Shown here piece after piece: positions 1 to 62,749 of a stretch of DNA of 64,000 bases. A model generated the notes under the pieces. That model was not told where the DNA came from. It saw only the letters and a program-made list of their open reading frames with translations, and did not search any database. Made by a program: the position numbers and the translations under genes. Position 1 is the stretch's first letter, and each line of letters starts with the position of its first letter. Origin of the DNA: an uncultured Desulfovibrionaceae bacterium (GTDB lineage Bacteria > Desulfobacterota > Desulfovibrionia > Desulfovibrionales > Desulfovibrionaceae); the NCBI GenBank assembly GCA_944325195.1, contig CALUZB010000005.1, positions 24,011 to 88,010 of the forward strand. The letters are read 5' to 3'.

Positions 1-1170
1 GATGCCCTTTTTTTCTCCGGTAAATCCAAGCCCCTCTTCCGTAGTGGCCTTCACCGCCACTGCTGTGCGCGGAAGGTGCAGCAGTGAGGCCACATTTTTG
101 GCGATACACTCCTTCCAGGGAGAAATTCTGGGAATTTGCGCGATTATGGTCAGATCCACATGGGTTACCACTACCCCGGCCGCCTGAACGCGGTCGAGCA
201 CTTCCGACAACAGAATACCGCTGTCTATATTATCATAGGCGGCATCAGTATCCGGAAACAGTTCACCAATATCACCTTGGGCCAGACAACCCAGCAAAGC
301 ATCGGTCAGCGCGTGCAGCAGCACGTCGCCATCGGAATGGGCAATGACCTCCGGACCGCCGGCAATGGGCACACCGCCCAGTTTCAACGGCCTTCCCGGT
401 CCATATTTGTGCACGTCATACCCAAACCCGTTGCACGGCAAAAGCGGCGCGGGCGCCGAATGCTGCCGGAGCTTCTCCAGATCACCGGGGTGAGTGATTT
501 TAAGGTTGTCAATCTCCCCTTCCACTACTTCCACCGCCATACCCAACGCCTCCAGCAAGGCGGCGTCGTCGGTAACCGTCAGATTTTCCATTTCCGCTTC
601 CAGATGAGCCCGGCGCAAAGCCGCAAGCTGAAATCCCTGGGGCGTCTGCACCGCGCGCAAACCGTCACGCGGCGGGGTGGCCGTCACATGACAGACGGCG
701 TCGCTGCCCGCCGAAGTAACGGCAGACACCATTTTAATCGTATCCACCACTTCAATACCGGGAATTACCGCCAAGGCACCGGCCTCAAGGCGATCGCACA
801 CCCGATTGATCAGGCGCGGGCTCACAAAAGGCCGGGCCCCATCGTGCACCAGAATATGCGTACATTCCGACGGAAGCGCCTGCAGGCCCGCGCGCACTGA
901 ATCCTGCCGCCGCGCCCCGCCTGCCGCCACCCGCCAAGGCACGCCCAAGTCGTATCCGGCAATCAACCCGCGCAACTCATGTTCACATTCAGCAAGCAAG
1001 GCGGGCGGAAACACAAACACCAAACCGCTGATGCGGGCTACCCGGGCCATGCGGCGGGCACAGGCAAAATACAGCGGCCCGCCCTCAAAATCCAGAAACT
1101 GTTTCGGACAGCCCAACCCGGCAAGCCGACTGCTGCTTCCGGCCGCCAGAATAATCCCCCAGATGTTCAT
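1..1170 (-). CDS. ispDF: Bifunctional IspD/IspF (MEP cytidylyltransferase / MEcPP synthase); 3' end cut by the window edge
   Basis: Absent from the ORF track because no stop lies in the window. My minus-strand translation from the ATG at 1170-1168 gives MNIWGIILAAGSSSRL...ILVHDGARPF (IspD), then GYDVHKY...AHSDGDVLLHALTDA...ATTEEGLGFTG (IspF motifs). Confidence 0.9.
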   Translation of the reverse strand, partial: MNIWGIILAAGSSSRLAGLGCPKQFLDFEGGPLYFACARRMARVARISGLVFVFPPALLAECEHELRGLIAGYDLGVPWRVAAGGARRQDSVRAGLQALPSECTHILVHDGARPFVSPRLINRVCDRLEAGALAVIPGIEVVDTIKMVSAVTSAGSDAVCHVTATPPRDGLRAVQTPQGFQLAALRRAHLEAEMENLTVTDDAALLEALGMAVEVVEGEIDNLKITHPGDLEKLRQHSAPAPLLPCNGFGYDVHKYGPGRPLKLGGVPIAGGPEVIAHSDGDVLLHALTDALLGCLAQGDIGELFPDTDAAYDNIDSGILLSEVLDRVQAAGVVVTHVDLTIIAQIPRISPWKECIAKNVASLLHLPRTAVAVKATTEEGLGFTGEKKGI

Positions 1171-1365
1171 CAAAATTCCTTTATGGTTTGAGTCTCCCCA
1201 AAAGCGGGAAAGAAACAATTGCCGCGTCGGCTTCCCCGACAGACTCATTTTCTGTAACCCCGCTCAAGGGGCAATCCGCGCACCCCCTATCCCTCGGCTG
1301 CGGGAAGCTCAATTTGCGGCTGGAGCGACTGTGGCCTGAACTATCGTCCTTATCCTTTAAATTAT

Positions 1366-1761
1366 GGAGTCGGGCTGTAAGCCGGGTTCTGTTCCCCGAT
1401 GCCGGGGCGACTGTCATTCCTCTGGCACGACGGTTACCCGCCGCGTCTAGCAACCTACCCGAAAGCTCGGCCGGGCCGACCTTGACGCTTTCCTATTTGG
1501 TCTTGCTCCAAACGGGGTATACCTGGCCTGATTTGTCACCAAACCAGCCGGTGGTCTCTTACACCACCCTTTCACCCTTACCCCGCGGCTGCCTCAAATC
1601 GGAAACAGAAACATCTGCTTCCGGTTCAAAGCGACCGCGGGGCGGTTTGCTTTCTGTTGCACTTGCCGGGAATCACTTCCCCTGGACGTTATCCAGCGTT
1701 TTGCCCTGTGGAGCCCGGACTTTCCTCGACTCACAAAAGCCGCGACAGTCCGCCCGACTCC
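1366..1761 (-). ncRNA. rnpB: RNase P RNA, bacterial type A
   Basis: The minus strand reads GGAGTCGGGCGGAC...GAGGAAAGTCCGGGCTCCACAGGGCA...GGTAAGGGTGAAAGGGTGGTGTAAGAGACCACC...ACAGAACCCGGCTTACAGCCCGACTCC. The universal P4 and J-region motifs are present. P1 is closed by GGAGTCGGGC/GCCCGACTCC. Confidence 0.93.
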
Positions 1762-3412: not shown

Positions 3413-3574
3413 AATCTTACTCTTGTGCCTTTGTTGCAGATTAAAAGACATTGTTTATCCGAACAACAAATTGAGGTCAAGAAGAAGTGTGAGCGCTTAC
3501 CTGAATTCGGCATTGCCATGTTAAAGCTTCTTCTATAAAGTTGAAGGAAAACAGCCATTCAACAGGAGGCGGCA

Positions 3575-4180
3575 ATGCAGATTCTCATTCCTTTTTATTC
3601 ACTGTATGGTCATGTGTACGCGCTTGCCCGGGCAATTGCCCAGGGGGTGGAAAAAGCCGGCGCAACCCCGAAGCTGATGTTTGTGCAGGAAACCTTCACC
3701 CCGGAAATTCTCGCAAAAATGGGAGCGCCGGAGCCTGAGTTGCGCGGCGCGCATCTGCCCGCCCCCACGCCTGATGACCTGGTGGACTCGGGCGGGATTA
3801 TTTTCGGCTGTCCCACCCGTTTCGGGGGAATGCCCGCGCAAATGCGGGCGTTTCTCGACCGCACCGGCGGCATCTGGACCAAACAGGCGCTGGCCGGAAA
3901 GGTGGGCGGATCGTTCGTTTCTACAAACACCCGGCACGGCGGTCAGGAAATGACCCATTTCGCCTTTCACACGTTCATGCTGCATCACGGTATGCTGGTG
4001 GCGGGCGCGGGGTTTTCCTACCCCGGACTGTTCGATCATACCGCAGTGAACGGCGGCAGCCCCTATGGGGCGGGAACCATTGCCCGGGACAACGCCGTAA
4101 TGCCCACAGACGAGGAATTGGGCCTGGCCCGGTTGCAGGGCGAAACCATTGCCGGCATAGCGCTTAAGCTGGCCTCTTAA
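3575..4180 (+). CDS. wrbA: NAD(P)H:quinone oxidoreductase, flavodoxin-like WrbA
   Basis: 201 aa. Sequence: MQILIPFYSLYGHVYALARAIAQG...GCPTRFGGMPAQMRAFLD. An AGGAGG SD lies upstream. Confidence 0.9.
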   Translation: MQILIPFYSLYGHVYALARAIAQGVEKAGATPKLMFVQETFTPEILAKMGAPEPELRGAHLPAPTPDDLVDSGGIIFGCPTRFGGMPAQMRAFLDRTGGIWTKQALAGKVGGSFVSTNTRHGGQEMTHFAFHTFMLHHGMLVAGAGFSYPGLFDHTAVNGGSPYGAGTIARDNAVMPTDEELGLARLQGETIAGIALKLAS

Positions 4181-11422: not shown

Positions 11423-11722
11423 CGGCTTAACCTCTAAAATAAGGCAAATTTGTATGGCTCAGCCCGCGGTCGGCTCTGTCTGCCGATTGAGCAAGCCAAC
11501 CGGCTCCTGTCCCGCATTTTTCCGGGCGCGCTTCCGCCGCCTGCTTCAGCCCATATCGGCAATGACCGGAAAGGGAAAAGACGATGCAGCAAATGTCGCG
11601 GGCTTATTGTTGCCTCGCCTTGTGGACGGAAATTGCGGAAACAGACGTTTCATCGGCTTAAATCCTGTCAACCCATTCTTCCCCTGTTTAGGGCGGTTTC
11701 AGACCATTAGAGGAAAAATTCG

Positions 11723-12805
11723 ATGAAGAAATTGCAGTTAAAACGCATTGGCGGCCTGGCGGCCCTGGTTTGCGCAATTGCGGGCCTGAGCGCCTGCGCG
11801 ACCGGGGGCGGACGTTCCGGCTCTGATGTTAATTCTCGCATCAGTCAGTTGGAAAGCCGGGTGAACACCATCAGCACTCAGATTGACGGCACCCAGTCGG
11901 CGGAAGTGTGGAGCCGGATGCAGAGTATGGAAGGCGACCTGAACATTGTGCGCAATCAGATGAACGACCTGAGCCAGCGCATGAGCGGCCCCAAAGGTAA
12001 TGAAGTGCTTTCGGCAAACCAGCGCCTCGACCGTATGGAAGCCGCCTTGAAGGAAATCTCCACCCGTCTGGGCATCACGGTGGAAGCCATGGAAGAGCCC
12101 TATACCCCCGCGCCCGCGCCAGGCCCCGAGCAGATGTATAACAACGCCGGGGCAACCGCCGGAACAGCCGCTCCCGCCCTGGCCCCCGCGGGAGAAGCCG
12201 GTTCAACCCCAACCACCCCCACCGGCATTCAACAGCCGGGCGCCACTCAGGTGATCAATTCCGACGGCACAGTTACCGTGCTGATTAACGGCGAGCCCCA
12301 GCGCGTGCCCATTGCCCCGGGCGCCGTGCCGGGTCAGGCTAATCCGCCGGCTGCCACTCCTCAGTCCGGGGCGGATGCCGGAGCAGGCGCGGGCGGCGTG
12401 ATGACCGCCCCGACCGGCGGCGGCTCTGCCGATGTGGCCCAGAACCTGTATAATCAGGGCCTGGAGCTGTTCAACAAATATCAGTATAACGATGCCCTCA
12501 CCTGCTTTAAGGATTTCACCGATAACTATCCCGAACATCGACTTACCTCCAACGCCTGGTTCTGGCAGGGCGAATGCAGCTATCAGCTCAAAGACTACCC
12601 GGCCGCGGTGGTGGCCTACCAGCGGGTGATTACCGATTACCCCGATAACAATAAGTACGTCTCTTCCCTGCTTAAGCAAGGCATGGCTCTGGCGGCCAAC
12701 GGAAACCGCGAGCAGGCTAAAGTGCGTTGGCGGGAAATAACCACTCGTTTCCCGGACAGTCCGGAAGCTACCCGGGCCAAGCAATTGCTGGCCGGGAAGG
12801 CTTAA
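11723..12805 (+). CDS. TPR lipoprotein, YbgF/CpoB-like (coiled coil, P/A/G-rich linker, C-terminal TPRs)
   Basis: It has a lipobox (LSACA), an N-terminal coiled coil and C-terminal TPR repeats (YNQGLELFNKYQYNDALTCFKDF...WFWQGECSY). Confidence 0.7.
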   Translation: MKKLQLKRIGGLAALVCAIAGLSACATGGGRSGSDVNSRISQLESRVNTISTQIDGTQSAEVWSRMQSMEGDLNIVRNQMNDLSQRMSGPKGNEVLSANQRLDRMEAALKEISTRLGITVEAMEEPYTPAPAPGPEQMYNNAGATAGTAAPALAPAGEAGSTPTTPTGIQQPGATQVINSDGTVTVLINGEPQRVPIAPGAVPGQANPPAATPQSGADAGAGAGGVMTAPTGGGSADVAQNLYNQGLELFNKYQYNDALTCFKDFTDNYPEHRLTSNAWFWQGECSYQLKDYPAAVVAYQRVITDYPDNNKYVSSLLKQGMALAANGNREQAKVRWREITTRFPDSPEATRAKQLLAGKA

Positions 12806-14284: not shown

Positions 14285-14447
14285 CCCCGGGCTTTTCCCG
14301 AAAGCTGTTTGACCGACTTAAGACGAATTGGCCGGAGGCCGACAGATCGGTCGGAGCGATGTGCGGCAGACGTAACCAGAAACGCCTTTACGGTTTACCA
14401 CCTCTCCCCATACCCCCCAAAAAAACAGAAGGTGATGGGGGTGTTCA

Positions 14448-14616
14448 TCAAAAATTCATTTGCGGTTTGAAACCTCCCGATGATTTGACAAAACTTTGAG
14501 CCGGTAATATCCTTTTGTCCTAACCTCTCGCCTTTCGGGAGAGGCAATCAGCACGCCCCCTATCCGTCGGCGGCTTCAGTCAGTCGGCGGATAGGGGGCG
14601 TGTGGATTGAAACATG
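14448..14616 (-). repeat. Mosaic multi-hairpin repeat, copy A (inverted orientation; lacks one hairpin module)
   Basis: The reverse complement aligns along its whole length with the copies at 20926, 54419 and 57605. The plus strand ends in ...GTCGGCGGATAGGGGGCGTGTGGATTGAAACAT. Confidence 0.9.
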
Positions 14617-20602: not shown

Positions 20603-20925
20603 ATAAGCTCCTGTAAAATGTATTCCTATTACCTGAAAATTTGCATTATTTTTGACATTTTATCTCATATTTGTCAAGTTTTCAGGGCAGAATTCGCTAT
20701 TTTTGCGGATTACAGGCCTGTCCGGTACATGCTTTGCCGATGCAAAGCCAACGGCCGGAGCGGATTAACTTTTAAGACTTAATCTGCATATGATTTCTCA
20801 AGAACTTCCCGCAAAAGTTTAGCCTCTTAAGATTTCCTTAAGCTTCATATGGTTATATCCAACTCAAGGAAGAAGGAAAGTCAACTAATCATCTGATTCA
20901 AGCAATCTGATATATGGAGGTTAAT

Positions 20926-21106
20926 ATGTTTCAATCCACAGTCGCCCCACCCGCCGACTGACGGAAGCCGCTTACGGATAGGGGCGTGCGGATTACCTCT
21001 CGCCTTTCGGGAGAGGTTACGGCAAAAGGATATTATCGGCTCAAAGCTTTGTCAAATCATCTTTTCCCCCTGAAGGGGGGAGGTTTCAAACCTCAAAGGA
21101 GTTTTT
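20926..21106 (+). repeat. Mosaic multi-hairpin repeat, copy B
   Basis: ATGTTTCAATCCACAGTCGCCCCACCCGCCGAC...CGGATAGGGGCGTGCGGATT, then CCTCTCGCCTTTCGGGAGAGG...TTTGTCAAATCATC...CCCCCTGAAGGGGGG, GAGGTTTCAAACCTC, AAAGGAGTTTTT. Confidence 0.9.
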
Positions 21107-21108
21107 TT

Positions 21109-21528
21109 ATGAACAGAACTTTTCTTTCCCGCGTGAAAACTCTTTGCGCAGCCGGCGCTCTGGGCGCTTTGCTGCTGTTCGCGGTCGGCTCTGAAAACGC
21201 CGCGGCCCAGTTCCAGGGCAATACTGCTCAAAACGCCCCGGCTATGGGCGGCTTCACCGGCCCGGCGACCGCTCCCAACACTGTGGCCCAGGCGAAAAAA
21301 ATGTGGGACGACACCCCGGTTGTCCTCAGAGGCAACATCGTCAACTCGCTGGGCGGTGAATACTACACTTTCCGCGATCAAAGCGGGGAAATCATGGTTG
21401 AAATAGACCACGACGTGTGGTGGGGCGTGCAGGTTGACCCTAAAGATACCGTGGAAATTTACGGAGAAGTGGAAAAGGATTTCGGAGAAGCTGTTAAAAT
21501 AGACGTAAAGCGGCTTATCAAGCGCTGA
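21109..21528 (+). CDS. ygiW: YgiW/YdeI-family OB-fold (BOF) periplasmic stress protein
   Basis: The start [19 protein letters not shown] carries a signal peptide. Sequence: [43 protein letters not shown]...[11 protein letters not shown]. The track ORF at 20986 runs through the repeat and is not credible upstream of this Met. Confidence 0.85.
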
Positions 21529-26523: not shown

Positions 26524-26618
26524 GGAGAGGTAGCGAAGTTGGCCGTAACGCGCCCGACTCGAAATCGGGTTACCGGTGTTGAGCCGGTACGCGGGTTCAA
26601 ATCCCGCCCTCTCCGCCA
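26524..26618 (+). tRNA. tRNA-Ser (anticodon CGA), CCA encoded
   Basis: Acceptor stem GGAGAGG/CCTCTCC. Anticodon stem-loop CCCGA-CTCGAAA-TCGGG. Long variable arm. T-arm GCGGG-TTCAAAT-CCCGC. Discriminator G followed by CCA. Confidence 0.92.
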
Positions 26619-26910
26619 GAAGCAAAAACAACGGTGTGCAGCCTGCTCTGAAAAACCTTGCTGCGCGCCGTTTTTCTGTACCGGCAGACATAGCGCCGTT
26701 GAGGAGTCTTCAGGCCCGCCGCCACTGAGCAGAACAGACGCGTGGCCGGTAGCTGAACCGTCCGAATGACTGTGCCTGTTCCGCCGATTCCGCTGTCCTG
26801 TAACGGATAATCCGGACAGGCGACGGTCATCCCCGGGCTGCACTCCCCCGGGCAGAACGCTCACCTTCAGTTTGAAAAGGTACCTGTTCCAAGCATTATC
26901 CCGCCTTTCA

Positions 26911-26939
26911 TCCAAAATTCCTTTGTAGTTTGAAACCTC
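26911..26939 (-). repeat. Solo fragment of the mosaic repeat (right-end module)
   Basis: TCCAAAATTCCTTTGTAGTTTGAAACCTC matches TCAAAAATTCATTTGCGGTTTGAAACCTC of copy A. Confidence 0.6.
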
Positions 26940-27138
26940 GGCCTTCAGGCCAAGCTTAAGCCCCAGCCCGCGCCAGCACTCAAACCGGGCGCCCGGCCAC
27001 AACCCAAGACTGGAGAATTGCTTGTCAACACTACAGGGACAACACCCGACATTTCCCCCCCCCCTCCAACCGCCAACCTCTGCTCAGCAGCAACCGCCAA
27101 AGCGGATTTCAAAATTCAGTTGACATTCACTTTCAATT

Positions 27139-31004: not shown

Positions 31005-31365
31005 GGGGGCGCCCTGGTTTCGACGGGGGTGCAGAAACCAAAGCGGCAGGTCGAGGCGCCGCTGGCCTCGTAAAAAGCGGCAAAAATGTAATTGCCAACG
31101 ACGATTACGCATACGCTTACGCTGCTTAATTAAGCAACGGGTCCGGGTGAATGACGCCTGATAGTTCAGTCGGATTTTAAAAAATTAATCAGGCTGGCTG
31201 CAACGGGGGCCGGTTGCCGTTGCAGTGAGATTCGACAATCGGCTGGCCGCCGACCGCCCGGTCAGGGGCAAAACCGGCTGCGAGACCTTAAAACCTGACC
31301 TAAACCTGTAGAAGCTTTGCGTGGAGCATTCTCGGACGCGAGTTCGATTCTCGCCGCCTCCACCA
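31005..31365 (+). ncRNA. ssrA: tmRNA (SsrA), tag ANDDYAYAYAA
   Basis: 5' GGGGGCGCCCTGGTTTCGACGGGGG. 3' GGACGCGAGTTCGATTCTCGCCGCCTCCACCA, with a G3:U pair. The tag ORF is GCC AAC GAC GAT TAC GCA TAC GCT TAC GCT GCT TAA at 31094-31129. Confidence 0.95.
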
Positions 31366-31840: not shown

Positions 31841-32554
31841 ATGGAATTTGATAAACCATTAAAAGGACTTAACGTCATTCTTGACCGGGACGGCACAGTC
31901 ATTGCGGAAAAGCATTATCTGTCCGCCCCGGAGCAGGTGGAGTTGCTGCCCGGCGTGGCCGCCGCCCTGCGCAGGCTTTGCCGGGCCGGAGCCAGACTGT
32001 TCATTGTGACCAATCAATCGGGCATCGGGCGGGGCTACTTCAGCCTGGACGCCTATGAACAGGTGGCGGCAAGGCTGTCCGCCCTGCTTAAGGCGGAAGG
32101 AGTGGAATTGGAAGCCACGCTTTTCTGTCCTCACGCCCCGGCGGACCGGTGCGCCTGCCGCAAACCGGACATCGGAATGTGGCTGGAATTGAGCCGCAAA
32201 TTCGCCCTTGCCCCGGAACAGAGCGTGATGATCGGCGATAAAATGGACGACATCAGATTCGGCCTGAACAGCGGGCTTGCCGCCGTGATTCTGGTGCTTA
32301 CCGGGCACGGCCGGGAAACAGCCGCCAAGTATGGGTTCCGCACGCCCGCCTCTGCCGCTGGCGTTTGCGCTCCCACAGCCCTTTCCCCCAACCGCCCACT
32401 GCACCGCCAAAGTGCCGCCGCCGGAACCGGCCCCGCCGTTCCCCTTGCACCGGACGCTCCGGACGCGCCCGCTCCTCACCTCATTGCCCATGACCTGCCC
32501 GCGGCCGCGGACTGGATTATGCGGAACCTCAGGCAAGACCGGCCATGCGCATAG
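31841..32554 (+). CDS. gmhB: D,D-heptose 1,7-bisphosphate phosphatase (HAD-IIIA) with a P/A-rich C-terminal tail of about 70 aa
   Basis: Sequence: ILDRDGTVI...VTNQSGIGRGYFS...CPHAP..CACRKPDIGM...IGDKMDDI. Confidence 0.85.
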   Translation: MEFDKPLKGLNVILDRDGTVIAEKHYLSAPEQVELLPGVAAALRRLCRAGARLFIVTNQSGIGRGYFSLDAYEQVAARLSALLKAEGVELEATLFCPHAPADRCACRKPDIGMWLELSRKFALAPEQSVMIGDKMDDIRFGLNSGLAAVILVLTGHGRETAAKYGFRTPASAAGVCAPTALSPNRPLHRQSAAAGTGPAVPLAPDAPDAPAPHLIAHDLPAAADWIMRNLRQDRPCA

Positions 32555-33633
32555 CTGTCTGGAACACCGCCTGGCTGGGCGACAGTGTGCTCACCCTGCC
32601 CCTGATCGAACTGGTGAAAAACCATTTTCCCAATGCCGCTATCGACTTTTATGTGCGTCAGGGCCTGGGCGGTCTTTTCACCTGTCATCCGGCCATTGCC
32701 CGGGTCTTTGAATTCAATAAGAAACAGCACACCGGCCCGGCTACACTATACCGCTACGGGCGCGGTCTGGCCGCGCGGAAATATTCCATCTGGCTCAGCG
32801 CCCACCGCAGTTGGCGCAGCAGTTTCATTGCCCAACTGGCCAGCGCGCCGATCCGCATCGGCTACAATTCCGGTCCGCTCAGCCGCCTGATTTACACCCA
32901 CACTGTGGAACGGGATTTTTACAAGCTGGCGGAAATCGAGCGCATTCTCAAGCTGGCCGTTCCTCTGGGCATTGAGCTGAACCTGGATACAGATTTGAAC
33001 ATGAACGCCGCCCCCGACAAGTCCAGCCCCGCCCATTGGCCGCATCTGGCGCTCTGCCCGGAAGCGGAAGCAAAAGCGGACGCAATCCGGCAAAGTCTCG
33101 CCCCGGACCGCCCGGTGCTGGGCATTCACCCCGGCGCCGCCTGGCCCACAAAACGCTGGCCCGTGGAAAACGTAATTGCGGTGGCCCGCCTGGCTGCAGC
33201 GCATCAGGTGCAGATCATCCTGTTCGGGGCTCCCGGCGAACAGGTGGAAACGGACGCGGTGAGCGCGGCCATGCAGGATTACCCCGGGTTCATCAATCTG
33301 GCCGGGCAACTCAGCCTGCCCCAACTGGCTGCCTGTCTGGGCCGCCTGGACTGCTTTCTGAGCAACGACTCCGGCCCCATGCACCTGGCCTGGGTGCAGA
33401 ACACCCCGGTAACCGCGGTGTTCGGCCCCACAGTACGCGCGCTGGGCTTCTTCCCGCGCGGGCCGCACAGCACGGTAATTGAAACCAAGCTGTCTTGCCG
33501 CCCCTGTGGGCTGCACGGACACCGTAAATGCCCGAAAGGGCACCACGCCTGTATGCGCAACATCACCCCCCAACAAGTCTGGGCCGATATTGCAAGGAAG
33601 TTGAAACTGGCTGGGAGCACAACGACTTGTTAA
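32545..33633 (+). CDS. Glycosyltransferase family 9 (LPS heptosyltransferase)
   Basis: 362 aa. Sequence: MRIAVWNTAWLGDSVLTLPLI...NDSGPMHLA. It overlaps gmhB by 10 nt. Confidence 0.85.
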   Translation: MRIAVWNTAWLGDSVLTLPLIELVKNHFPNAAIDFYVRQGLGGLFTCHPAIARVFEFNKKQHTGPATLYRYGRGLAARKYSIWLSAHRSWRSSFIAQLASAPIRIGYNSGPLSRLIYTHTVERDFYKLAEIERILKLAVPLGIELNLDTDLNMNAAPDKSSPAHWPHLALCPEAEAKADAIRQSLAPDRPVLGIHPGAAWPTKRWPVENVIAVARLAAAHQVQIILFGAPGEQVETDAVSAAMQDYPGFINLAGQLSLPQLAACLGRLDCFLSNDSGPMHLAWVQNTPVTAVFGPTVRALGFFPRGPHSTVIETKLSCRPCGLHGHRKCPKGHHACMRNITPQQVWADIARKLKLAGSTTTC

Positions 33634-36025: not shown

Positions 36026-36054
36026 TCCCGAAAGGCGGGATTGCGGATTGAAAC
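36026..36054 (-). repeat. Solo CRISPR-repeat-like unit (small hairpin + GCGGATTGAAAC on the plus strand)
   Basis: TCCCGAAAGGCGGGATTGCGGATTGAAAC lies 34 nt after the ilvE stop. It shares GGATTGAAAC with the four full copies. Confidence 0.5.
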
Positions 36055-36909
36055 TTTACTGAACAGCTCCGGCGTCGGAGAGGAAACCCGCTGAGCAGGT
36101 TGAAGCAGCCGGGTTACAGTGTGGCGTTTGCTCGCCCGACGCCCGGAGCCTGATTGGGTAAAGGGACTGACCAGGACAGAGTATTGAACTGCAAACACAA
36201 TGCTCCTGAATTCCAGGGTACACAAGCATGCGCCGCCAAACCCTTCAGGACGGGGTGGGGCTCCATTCGGCCTGAAGGCCGAGCTCTCAGACTCCAAAGA
36301 AATTTTGGATAACGGGTAATGCCTCTCAGAATATTGAATTGCAAATCAAGTCTTTAGACGGACGCCGGGAGTGGATGTAAAAGCGATATCCGGCATCTGA
36401 AACCAAGCCGAAAATGGGATATTGTAAGGCCGGTGAGCTCAATTGTCCGGCGGCGGCTGTAAACAGGCCGGGAAATCGCGGTTTTGGCGGCATGCTTCGC
36501 ATAAATCAACCGGTCTGACCGGGCGTTATGCAATGAGTTACAGGCAGTCGGCGCAATATCGGCCGGAACGTAAGGAAATGGCGGATCTGACCGCCGATCC
36601 GGAGAGTTGAGTCACGTAATATCTGAGCAGAACAGGGCCTGAACCGATCCCGGTAAGCGGTAAAGCGCCCGGATAGTGCGGGCACAGCGACCACCACGAC
36701 CGTTCGCGGTTCAACCTTGCAGCGGAACGAAAAGCAATGCGGCAGCCATGCGGCTGTTTCTCGTTCCGTCTCTGCTGTTCTGACGATGCGCCGGGTTGCC
36801 GGTTATGGTTGTGGCGCCGGTAATGGACAGGTTGTTTCGCGCGGCTGGAATATCGGGCAAACCACTCTGAAAGCATTGAAGGCAGACCTTAGACCTTAAG
36901 GAAGCTCAA

Positions 36910-38312: not shown

Positions 38313-38714
38313 CCGCCCCCAAGGAATACCCCTGAGGACTGTTTGGAGGACTGACTGATAAATTCACATCAAAAATTGCTCACATCTTCCGCTGCTGTTT
38401 TCCTTCCGACTGTCCGTTCTTCCGGGCAGACAACGCCTGATATACTCCGGATTGCTTGTTCCCTCTGTTCTGTTTGTTTCAATCCTTAATCCGCCTGTCC
38501 GTCTGCTTGCGCCGTAACTGCCGGACAGAGTTTGCGGGCTTGCCCCCGCATTTCGGAAAGAGTCAAGGAAAACAATTTCCTCAATTTCGCCGCTTTCTCA
38601 ATGACTTTCTTCACTTCAAGGAGTGAGTTGCAACCCCAAGAGGAGTTCCGGGAAACAGATAATCACCTGTAAGCACCCAGCCAAGGCGCCCTCTCCAACA
38701 CCTGTTCCTGCAGC

Positions 38715-54418: not shown

Positions 54419-54602
54419 ATGTTTCAATCCACAGTCGTCCCCAGCCGCCGACTGACTCTCGCGCGCGGCGGACAGGGGGCGTGCGGATTGCCTCTCCCTC
54501 AAGGGGGAGGTTACAAAAAAAGATTTCATCGGCTGCGCCGTATTGTCAAGAACTTTTTCCCGCCTTTCGGAGGCGGTTTTAAACCATAAAGGAATGTTTG
54601 AT
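54419..54602 (+). repeat. Mosaic multi-hairpin repeat, copy C (most diverged; overlaps the ribE 3' end)
   Basis: ATGTTTCAATCCACAGTCGTCCCCAGCCGCCGAC...GGACAGGGGGCGTGCGGATTG, then CCTCTCCCTCAAGGGGGAGG...TTGTCAAGAAC...CCGCCTTTCGGAGGCGG...AAAGGAATGTTTGA. Confidence 0.85.
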
Positions 54603-55289
54603 AAAAAAGTCCGGACCAAGCCCCGTCCCTCTGCTTTCAGCACTGCCCTGAGCCCGGCCGCTGCCCGGCCCGGCCGCCGGATCCGCCTGATGCAGGCGAA
54701 GCATTTTCGCCACATACTTGCCCAGCAAATCCACTTCCAGATTAGCGGCATGGCCCGGGCGCCAGAAACGGGCGGTTGTGGCACTCCAGGTTGCGGGAAT
54801 AAGGTTCAGCTCAAAATAACCGGGGCCGCAGGCGTTGACCGTAAGACTGATTCCATCCACACAAACAGAGCCCTTGTTCACAATGTACATATCCAGGGCC
54901 GGGTCACAGGCGAATCGAACCAGATGTGAAGCGGAGCGGTTTTCCAGGCGACTTACTTCCGCCAGACCGTCCACATGCCCACTGACAATATGCCCGCCCA
55001 GACGCTGCCCCAAGCACAGGGCCGGCTCAAGATTCACCCTGCTGCCGGGGGTCAGTCGGCCCAGAGTGGTGTTGCTTAGAGTTTCCTCGGAAGCATAAGC
55101 GCTGAAAGCCAGAGTAGTGCCGATGAAGCGGGTTTTTTCAGCGGTGAGACACACCCCGTTCACGGCCACGCTGTCGCCGGGCAACACCGCGTCCGCCGCC
55201 AGAGGGGCATTGATTTCCAGGCGCAAATCCCGCGCCTGCCTGGAAACTTCCTTAACCACGCCTAGCGCGGCAACCAGCCCTGTAAACAT
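54579..55289 (-). CDS. ribE: Riboflavin synthase alpha chain, with an atypical C-terminal tail of about 30 aa
   Basis: Sequence: MFTGLVAALGVVKEV...SVAVNGVCLT...VNLE...GHIVSGHVDG. The last 8 codons and the stop lie inside repeat copy C. Confidence 0.92.
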   Translation of the reverse strand: MFTGLVAALGVVKEVSRQARDLRLEINAPLAADAVLPGDSVAVNGVCLTAEKTRFIGTTLAFSAYASEETLSNTTLGRLTPGSRVNLEPALCLGQRLGGHIVSGHVDGLAEVSRLENRSASHLVRFACDPALDMYIVNKGSVCVDGISLTVNACGPGYFELNLIPATWSATTARFWRPGHAANLEVDLLGKYVAKMLRLHQADPAAGPGSGRAQGSAESRGTGLGPDFFIKHSFMV

Positions 55290-57604: not shown

Positions 57605-57784
57605 ATGTTTCAATCCACAGTCGCCCCACCCGCCGCCCGCCTCTCGCCGCGGACGGATAGGGGGCGTGCGGATTGCCTCTCGCCTTTCGGGAGAGGTTAC
57701 GACAAAAGGATAGGCTTCACCGTTTTGTCAAATCATCTTTTCCCCCTGAAGGGAGCGGTTTCAAACCGCAAAGGAATTTTTGAG
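57605..57784 (+). repeat. Mosaic multi-hairpin repeat, copy D
   Basis: ATGTTTCAATCCACAGTCGCCCCACCCGCCG...CGGATAGGGGGCGTGCGGATTG, then CCTCTCGCCTTTCGGGAGAGG...TTTGTCAAATCATC, CCCCCTGAAGGGAG, GCGGTTTCAAACCGC, AAAGGAATTTTTGA. Confidence 0.9.
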
Positions 57785-58299
57785 CAACCCTCTGTTTAAG
57801 TGCAGGCAACTCTGACAAACTGCGGTAAAAAGGGATACCTTTACATACGGCGGACCGGGACAGCGGACACAACAGCGCTTGCAGTAAAGCCGACACATCT
57901 CTCCCGGCGCGGACACACCGCGTGCTTCAACTACGCTTATCGGCAGTAAGCGCCGTATTCGCCGTCAAACAAGCGGCGACAGTATCACCGGCGGGCGGCA
58001 AAGCCCCTGTCCATATTCGACGACAGGGGCTTGAAAACAAATCTCATCAGAGCCGTCCCGCCGCAAAAATGCTCTGACAGCGGGCGCAACTCAAACCGAT
58101 CAGACGCAATCGCCCCCAGGCTACTGGTATCGCGCCGATCTGACCGCCGGACGGGTTTGCTGTTCCGCCTGGATCTGCCTGACGTCAACGGTCAGTTCAA
58201 TGTCGTCTGCCGCGGGCCGACACCCGGCACACCCACGAGCAGCCCGGCCCGGCTCATCTCAATGGTCAGCTAAACTGCGTCCGCGCGCGAGCCCCACCC

Positions 58300-62077: not shown

Positions 62078-62749
62078 CTTCCTTCCATTTCCTGTTCTGA
62101 AGCGGTTATTGTCCGAAATTACGCGCCGGATTCAGCCCCTTCTCGAAGCGAAACGAGCTGAAACGGCTGAAACGCGCAAAACCGGCTCCTCTCCCACAGC
62201 CGCCCTGCTTTGCGAAGCAGGACTGTCCGCGGCGGCCGCGCCGCAAATCGGCGCTGCCGATTTGGCTCAGGCTCAAATTTGTTTATAATCCAAACCACAA
62301 GCAACTGCAACCGGGAATTTCAAGCCGGGCTGCCGGAAGCGGCGGCTGGCGAAAGCAGGCCCAACCGGGAACAACGGAAGTTAAGCGTTGACGAATAAGG
62401 CCGGTCCGCCCACCTGAGTTCAATCCTCTTACATATAGTGGAATATCCAAAAATGCAAGGGAATACCTTATTTATAAACTCCGGAACAGCACAGATTGAC
62501 CGGCCCTGCTCGAATTATGATAAATATTGAACTATTTTCATTCTTCCCTCCCTCTTATCTACCATAAACCCGGATAAAAGTACTAAAAAGTACCTTTACA
62601 GCTCACTACCGCCCCTTTTTGGTGAAAAATGATTGACAAGCCGCCCCGCCAATGATTAGCTTACCTGTAATCCCAGTGGGAGCCCCAGCCGCAACCGAAG
62701 CAGGTTGATGAACAACCGGCGGCCGGAGCTGATGTGGGGATTTTCAGAC

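Follow-up and report, generated by a model that had tools for sequence, protein, structure and literature searches.

What kind of sequence is the hairpin-rich repeat that recurs through this stretch of DNA, and how has one of its copies come to lie on the start codon of a ygiW-like gene? The DNA analyzed here (the window) is a 64-kb stretch from an uncultured Desulfovibrionaceae bacterium, in which a sequence-only reading had reported four full copies of a mosaic, multi-hairpin, intergenic repeat. The family is confirmed as a real, hairpin-rich dispersed DNA repeat of ~185 bases, and it is more abundant than first stated and mechanistically more interesting than a plain intergenic repeat. We read it as a non-autonomous repeat of the REPIN/BIME/MITE kind, and consider it likely to be a genus-restricted mobile DNA repeat, which comprises a REPIN-like long palindrome and short hairpins and integrates at ATG(AA) with a portable ribosome-binding site (RBS).

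Copies of the repeat in the window

All four reported copies were located, with ends shifted by a few bases to those listed below, and they align over ~185 nt with a mean column identity of 77%. The leading 15-mer ATGTTTCAATCCACA has exactly four occurrences in the window and, when up to two mismatches are allowed, five, where shuffled sequences would give 0.13; the patterns of three further modules proved likewise non-random in the window search, and chance is ruled out as the source of the four copies. An nhmmer search of the window with a profile of 31 full copies retrieved at least six more copies that are diverged, internally deleted or partial, giving a total of at least 10 copies or fragments, ~1 per 6-9 kb:

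1166..1344, minus strand: old diverged copy between rnpB and ispDF (nhmmer 85.6 bits); its terminal ATG (1170-1168) opens an IspD-like ORF
11584..11727, plus strand: old copy with an internal deletion in hairpin 1 (nhmmer); its terminal ATG (11723) opens a 360-aa lipoprotein-like gene, and a host Shine-Dalgarno sequence (SD) lies before its first ATG
14444..14615, minus strand: full copy without hairpin 6, antisense between two plus-strand genes
20926..21111, plus strand: full copy on the start codon of the ygiW/BOF-like gene (nhmmer 155.8 bits)
26908..26949, minus strand: solo 3' module with hairpin 6 variant GGCCTGAAGGCC, hairpin 7, SD and ATG
36042..36056, minus strand: small 5' remnant
36261..36312, plus strand: solo 3' module with hairpin 6 variant GGCCTGAAGGCC (nhmmer)
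38474..38650, plus strand: diverged full-length copy in a convergent intergenic region (nhmmer E = 4e-12)
54419..54604, plus strand: full copy, antisense between a riboflavin-synthase-like gene and ribBA (both minus strand)
57605..57787, plus strand: full copy, antisense between glyA and a dCMP-deaminase-like gene (both minus strand); its 3' ATG is mutated (GAGCAA)
62584..62736, minus strand: doubtful, very diverged copy (nhmmer E = 4.6e-5)

Features absent from the sequence-only reading include the sharp ATG...SD-ATGAA ends, the positions on start codons, and the old, decayed members. Its description of all copies as intergenic needs amendment at two of them: the ygiW-like gene starts (21109) with the 3' ATG of the 20.9-kb copy, and the 54-kb copy contains the end of a riboflavin-synthase-like ORF (54579-55289, minus strand). 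The latter ORF enters the element by ~12 codons, its stop being a TAA in hairpin 7, and the insertion is probably the source of its annotated C-terminal tail. The two solo 3' modules, taken at 26975-26908 (minus strand) and 36235-36312 (plus strand), have in common the variant GGCCTGAAGGCCGAG...CAAAGRAATTTTGGAT together with some upstream sequence, and may form a separate short subfamily. The RNAs matched by Rfam in the window are RNase P RNA (1362-1761, minus strand), tmRNA (31005-31365, plus strand) and a tRNA (26524-26615, plus strand), and one repeat copy adjoins the 3' end of rnpB.

Anatomy and boundaries of the element

The module order previously proposed for the repeat is correct in the four full copies, and the G/C hairpin 6 is indeed optional, being missing in the 14-kb copy. 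The 20.9-kb copy contains the following features, with hairpins numbered by their modules:

20926..20961, plus strand: mini-ORF from ATG to TGA (MFQSTVAPPAD-stop), with its stop in the loop of hairpin 1
20933..20994, plus strand: hairpin 1 (62 nt), a long imperfect palindrome of two inverted ~28-nt units (REPIN-like doublet)
20996..21016, plus strand: hairpin 4, CCTCTCGCC TTTC GGGAGAGG
21017..21061, plus strand: module 5, mostly unpaired, AAAAGGATA ... TTTGTCAAATCATC
21066..21079, plus strand: hairpin 6, optional, CCCCC TGAA GGGGG
21082..21092, plus strand: hairpin 7, GGTTTCAAACC
21095..21111, plus strand: element-borne SD (AAAGGAG), spacer and ATG

The element has defined termini (5' ATGTTTCAATCC... 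and 3' ...AATTTTTG). The 5' end of every copy is sharp at ATGTTTCAATCC, with no conserved signal in the 20 nt upstream when the flanks of the copies are compared, and intact copies all end in AAAGGAATTTTTG-ATGA(A). Family-wide, hairpin 7 has the consensus GGTYTCAAACC, and an SD-like AAAGGAA lies 7 nt before the final ATG. Terminal inverted repeats (TIRs) are absent, as had been claimed: end-to-end local alignment, comparing the first 50 nt with the reverse complement of the last 50 nt, gave a score of 9 against a shuffle mean of 10.9.

Helices 1 and 2 of hairpin 1 are 95% and 88% paired, and the stems are 90% paired across 32 copies compared with 39-51% for slid controls. Covariation assessed by RNAalifold and pair counting did not exceed shuffles (7 pairs versus 4.6; 73 of 500 shuffles gave at least as many), and the aligned copies display no strand asymmetry of wobble pairs. 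Thus, the hairpins are real, given their high pairing, while covariation at shuffle level and strand-neutral wobble pairs lend no support to selection at the RNA level. An early sign that the minus strand folds better did not generalize. In two copies (window 14545-14608, minus strand, and L023 1089-1274, minus strand), the 5' arm of hairpin 1 is the exact complement of the 3' arm, and the 14-kb copy has hairpin 4 in exactly reverse-complemented form. These perfected palindromes and the inverted hairpin look like templated quasi-palindrome corrections or inversions, changes of a kind typical of DNA palindromes. In the shorter forms, material between two similar GC hairpins is lost, and copies consisting of the 5' part only or the 3' part only also exist, which makes 'mosaic' an apt term.

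The first ATG of the element opens an 11-codon ORF that is kept in ~25 of 32 aligned copies, usually with the peptide MFQSTVAPSAD-stop; in the 20.9-kb copy (MFQSTVAPPAD-stop) it is preceded by the host SD GGAGG at 20916-20920. The mini-ORF is not a gene, since the peptide is unconserved and indels shift the frame. Many copies have a second stop in another frame (TGACTGA), and the frame ending at TGATG is out of phase with the 5' ATG. A coding role was rejected, the mini-ORF and a longer internal frame being conserved neither in phase nor in sequence.

Start codons and the probable ATG(AA) target

The terminal ATG opens an ORF of at least 139 aa at 18 of ~50 intact 3' ends, and in about a third of the copies (~15 of 50) it serves as the genuine start of an unrelated gene. 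The start-codon copies in the window precede the ygiW/BOF-like gene (21109-21528, Pfam BOF), the IspD-like gene (1170, minus strand) and the gene for the 360-aa lipoprotein-like protein (11723). Ten of the downstream ORFs were scanned against Pfam, and nine are real proteins (CobS, FMN reductase, EF-G paralogue, MotA/ExbB, ABC-2 permease, alkyl sulfatase, LarC-like, YbaK-like and DUF1440), with the Pfam domain beginning within residues 6-39 in eight of the nine; the tenth ORF is probably spurious. Inspection of the flanks by eye indicates that GGAG or AAGGA, the host's own ribosome-binding site, precedes the first ATG of the element by 6-12 nt in most start-codon copies, which sets them apart from the other copies.

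When the junctions were read by eye, 16 of the 18 start-codon genes were found to begin with ATGAA, compared with ~21% of the other ATG-start genes in the same DNA, and GATGAA is kept also at copies that have no downstream gene, suggesting that the target, or the junction, is ATG(AA). The ATGAA conserved at the 3' boundary could be part of the target or of the element. Among all non-disruptive ATGAA sites, gene starts make up ~13-27% (crude gene calls), while 30-36% of the copies are at start codons. Thus, a short target combined with purifying selection explains most of the start-codon association, the enrichment over such a model being modest, and active recognition of initiation regions is not needed. 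By approximate counts, the copies between co-directional genes include 10 in sense at a start codon, ~2-6 in sense elsewhere and 13 in antisense, and six further copies lie in convergent spacers. It is rather unlikely that the element actively recognizes initiation regions and acts as a portable expression cassette, providing SD and ATG in the sense orientation and an outward promoter in the antisense orientation; if it did, dozens of housekeeping genes would be rewired in their translation or transcription, and a common regulatory layer would be possible in a gut sulfate reducer.

Distribution and copy identity

The expectation that the window's copies imply many more elsewhere was borne out, with the at least 10 copies and fragments in the window joined by 34 further loci, found by one exact-pattern scan of species-representative genomes. 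These loci belong to five Mailhella-type bins (Ca. M. excrementigallinarum, Mailhella sp. MGBC107932, a rabbit bin, OH_HBB_87 and Ca. M. merdigallinarum), which are labelled Mailhella or, in one case, just 'Proteobacteria bacterium'. The family thereby appears to be genus-restricted, found only in Mailhella-like gut sulfate reducers. Beyond the bins, a small number of contigs classified as viral have copies, and a circular rat-gut element has a 40-nt fragment. The virus-classified contigs (IMG/VR) carry full or truncated copies at the following positions:

L044 5441-5257, minus strand
L046 1770-1587, minus strand
L045 840-946, plus strand
L048 7954-8010, plus strand

L045 and L048 represent homologous sites, with differently truncated copies before the same ATGAAGTCAGCG gene start. 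A further viral contig, L047, was rejected as a family member, its match being a chance one within a coding region. The rat-gut sequence (L043, HG796367.1, plasmid pRGI00788, a 2.9-kb circular element) contains at 313-352 (minus strand) nt 3-42 of the repeat, corresponding to the 5' arm and loop, with 97.5% identity, and the rest of the repeat is absent from it; the phage and plasmid collections contained nothing beyond this 40-nt fragment.

Within bins, copy identity is high (mean 95%, up to 99% in MGBC107932; 89% in M. excrementigallinarum), and the near-identical copies lie in unrelated surroundings. Copies from different bins share 73-89% identity, and those of the window, at 64-83%, are older. 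In assemblies of the window's species from other samples, contigs break at the element edge, the behaviour expected of a repeat. No tandem arrays of the element were found in the sampled Mailhella DNA. The family had not been recognized by the sequence-only reading, and it has no match in Rfam at gathering or relaxed thresholds (best sub-threshold scores 20.1 bits for drz-agam-1, threshold 37, and 16.9 bits for CRISPR-DR9, threshold 45) and no description found in literature searches. It matches neither a known IS end nor a MITE with TIRs and target-site duplication (TSD), and extends well beyond the four loci first reported.

Empty sites and decay

The ygiW site provides the clearest view of the junctions. 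In the window it reads GGAGGTTAAT-ATG-TTTCAATCC...(183 nt)...GGAGTTTTTTT-ATG-AACAGA. The ygiW-like orthologues in L039 and L042, with 66-68% protein identity to that of the window, both keep the upstream motif CTTAAGATTTYCTTAAGC...TATATGG, followed by GGAGGTTA(A/G)T-ATG-gene, and the element is absent from both sites (sequence read; nhmmer negative). The N-terminus of the protein is equally long with and without the element (orthologue MKRSILSRVK). The empty orthologous sites and the unchanged N-terminal length thus place the element exactly on the ygiW start codon, with an ATG on both sides. The rnpB-ispD spacer of L034 also has no element, in a pair of sequences (L034 and the window) that otherwise would not align. 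In L033, a 30-nt spacer is present where L008 has a 370-nt insert containing the element. The L008 insert (3525-3920, versus L033 5726-6209) comprises the element and ~165 nt of other sequence with its own hairpin, and has on its two sides imperfect ~22-nt direct repeats of a sequence that is single in L033 (CTTGGGTCAGGTGCAAAAGG). The intergenic alignment of L021 with L032 was too diverged to be usable.

The search for empty sites, proposed as a check on the family, was thus productive in other species; within the window's own species it yielded none, exact-protein look-ups with three flanking genes returning contigs that all carry the element or break there. The claim of mobility therefore rests on between-species comparisons and on the identity of copies. 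Older insertions appear to decay unevenly. For example, the 3' module serves as the leader of the PHP-domain orthologues in both L017 and L023, the 5' 130 nt persisting in L017 only, and in the old copy at 1344-1166 (minus strand) the 5' ATG is now ATA (1344-1342), with the 3' SD and ATG intact. Decay of the 5' part with an intact 3' SD and ATG is what one would predict for a donated RBS in use and a dispensable remainder.

Proposed mechanism and alternative explanations

In the proposed mechanism, the element would integrate at ATG(AA), with one end being ATGTTTCAATCC and the other, AAAGGAATTTTTG, abutting ATGAA. On landing at a start ATG, the host SD and ATG would now open the 11-codon mini-ORF, which stops in the first hairpin loop, and the element's SD, 7 nt before the downstream ATG, would restart translation of the unchanged host protein; insertions at start codons would be tolerated because the element carries its own RBS. 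With time, the 3' module would become the working RBS of the gene, accompanied by decay of the 5' part. The remaining copies survive between genes, frequently in antisense to their neighbours.

As to the mobilizing enzyme, our first guess is an HUH/Y1 single-strand transposase of the RAYT or IS200/IS605 type acting in trans, and our second a site-specific recombinase with an ATG core. A single-strand enzyme acting on hairpins is suggested by the absence of TIRs, the asymmetric ends with subterminal hairpins, the fixed boundary pentanucleotide, and the palindrome corrections. The copies in the window occur on both strands (~6 plus, 5 minus) though the GC skew is uniformly negative, which speaks against a strictly lagging-strand single-strand transposon, in a comparison that is confounded by selection on orientation. 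Neither a transposase nor a recombinase partner emerged from the ~400 kb sampled, in which tblastn with IS200 TnpA (an approximate query sequence) and E. coli RayT gave no credible match. A weak match to E. coli RayT at 32519-32630 (minus strand) lies antisense inside real genes and was discarded.

The presence of ATG on either side of the element could equally reflect a 3-bp target duplication or a target ATG joined to an element-borne ATG, and a recombinase exchanging at an ATG core fits the junctions equally well. Under this alternative, a site-specific recombinase (IS110-like, serine or tyrosine) would act via a circular intermediate with crossover at the short ATG core, consistent with the paired ATGs at sites such as ygiW, with the absence of TIRs, and with the 40-nt piece of the 5' arm on the small rat-gut circular element. 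However, none of the copies has a visible recombinase gene nearby, a core of 3 nt would be very short among known systems, and nothing resembling a bridge or seek RNA was found in Rfam, and we consider this explanation unlikely.

A different explanation is that the repeat is primarily a family of cis-regulatory leader RNAs or small RNAs, whose hairpins and mini-ORF control translation or mRNA stability. This would account for the location of about a third of the copies in 5' leaders with SD and ATG, for the well-paired hairpins, and for conservation of the 3' module upstream of orthologous genes in two species. Against it, the genes downstream have no function in common, at least 13 copies run antisense to the genes on both sides, six occupy convergent spacers, copies within one genome are up to 99% identical in unrelated flanks, and orthologous sites in other species are empty, to which may be added the shuffle-level covariation, the strand-neutral wobble pairs and the lack of an Rfam match. 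A primary role as a leader RNA is thus distinctly improbable.

A classical MITE mobilized by a DDE transposase, with TIRs and a 3-bp ATG target duplication, would fit the ATG at both ends and the size and abundance of the element, but is made very improbable by ends that align no better than shuffles.

The least probable alternative is that the 5' arm is a CRISPR-derived solitary repeat, serving as a decoy or regulator through Cas-bound RNAs. Type I-C CRISPR repeats have the termini GTCG...GTGGATTGAAAC with the same spacing as the reverse complement of nt 3-33 of the element (GTCGGCGGATGGGGCGACTGTGGATTGAAAC), a match in both termini and length, and the solo arm on the circular element and a sub-threshold CRISPR-DR9 match on the L024 arm (16.9 bits, E = 0.36) point in the same direction; however, genuine repeats have an internal stem that the arm lacks, 400 kb of Mailhella DNA contained no array, metagenome arrays with repeats ending in CTGTGGATTGAAAC share with the arm only that 14-nt search terminus, and the Rfam score is far below the 45-bit gathering threshold. 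In the window copy, the reverse complement of the arm (20928-20958) reads GTCGGCGGGTGGGGCGACTGTGGATTGAAAC.

Comparison with known small repeats

MIRUs are 40-100 bp units, often arranged in tandem, with an ORF that spans the unit and overlaps the stop and start codons of the neighbouring genes. They apparently insert at start codons and leave downstream expression intact, the ORF within the unit being coupled to the gene at -4 nt spacing (PMC12548453). By analogy, they are the nearest functional precedent for the mobile repeat proposed here, with a position on start codons in both and preserved expression expected for the present element. By contrast with MIRUs, the element is ~185 nt long, hairpin-rich and never tandem, its host belongs to the Desulfovibrionaceae, and its frame-0 ORF stops at codon 12 (in the ~25 of 32 aligned copies), so that restart from the element-borne SD would be needed.

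In structure, the repeat has more in common with REPIN/BIME mosaics and IS200/IS605-derived elements than with MIRUs. Like REP, REPIN and BIME sequences, it is extragenic, abundant and vertically persistent within a genus, without TIRs and, unless the paired ATGs are a duplication, without a TSD; hairpin 1, as an inverted doublet of a ~28-nt unit with many extragenic copies, resembles a REPIN, and the whole element, as a mosaic of palindromes and linker motifs, resembles a BIME. It is set apart from REPINs by its greater length, strong asymmetry, defined ATG...SD-ATGAA ends and association with start codons. REPINs go with a cognate RAYT gene in the genome, typically with the repeats on both sides of it, and tblastn with E. 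coli RayT matched no RAYT in the ~400 kb sampled. With the IS200/IS605-derived PATEs, it shares the absence of TIRs, perhaps that of a TSD, the hairpins near both ends, and a boundary that abuts a conserved pentanucleotide (TTCAT on the reverse strand). IS200/IS605-type elements insert beside a fixed target of 4-5 nt, such as TTAC or TTGAT, on one side only, and the hairpin-to-end distances on the reverse strand (~18 nt left, ~7 nt right) resemble those of IS608. It differs from PATEs in that no TnpA or TnpB partner was seen, the window copies show no strand bias, and the two end hairpins are unlike.

The Neisseria Correia, enterobacterial ERIC and pneumococcal BOX families are also structured intergenic repeats of 100-200 nt that are co-transcribed with their neighbours and can donate expression signals, but there are no reports of any of them occupying a start codon and supplying an SD. 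The Correia type is bounded by 26-bp TIRs and duplicates TA at its target, and ERIC consists of a single long palindrome. BOX is modular, with BOX-encoded ORFs that have no good SD candidates (PMC3049150). The distinguishing trait of the present repeat is the self-contained RBS/ATG end, which lets a genus-specific repeat occupy start codons; the repeat belongs to none of the families compared here, and remains within the known world of small bacterial repeats.

Implications and outward promoter-like motif

The built-in RBS would represent a second, structurally unrelated route to start codons without gene silencing, distinct from the overlapping ORFs of MIRUs. Many core genes, including those for IspDF, the EF-G paralogue, CobS, the ExbB-like protein and YgiW, may have a working RBS of mobile-element origin, and start-site annotation in Mailhella genomes is affected. 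The repeat also explains fragmentation of assemblies and bins of these organisms, offers a compact natural design for an 'insulated RBS', and provides a tractable case for finding an enzyme that recognizes ATG(AA).

A minor observation concerns the reverse strand of module 5, which contains TTGACA-17 nt-TATCCT (window 21055..21027, minus strand), a candidate sigma-70-like promoter match pointing out of the 5' end of the element. In other species the -10 is weak, and in the 57.6-kb copy the spacer is just 13 nt. The same motif is present in the 14444-14615 copy, and in the three antisense window copies it would be aimed at the ribBA, dCMP-deaminase-like and sulfatase-like genes.
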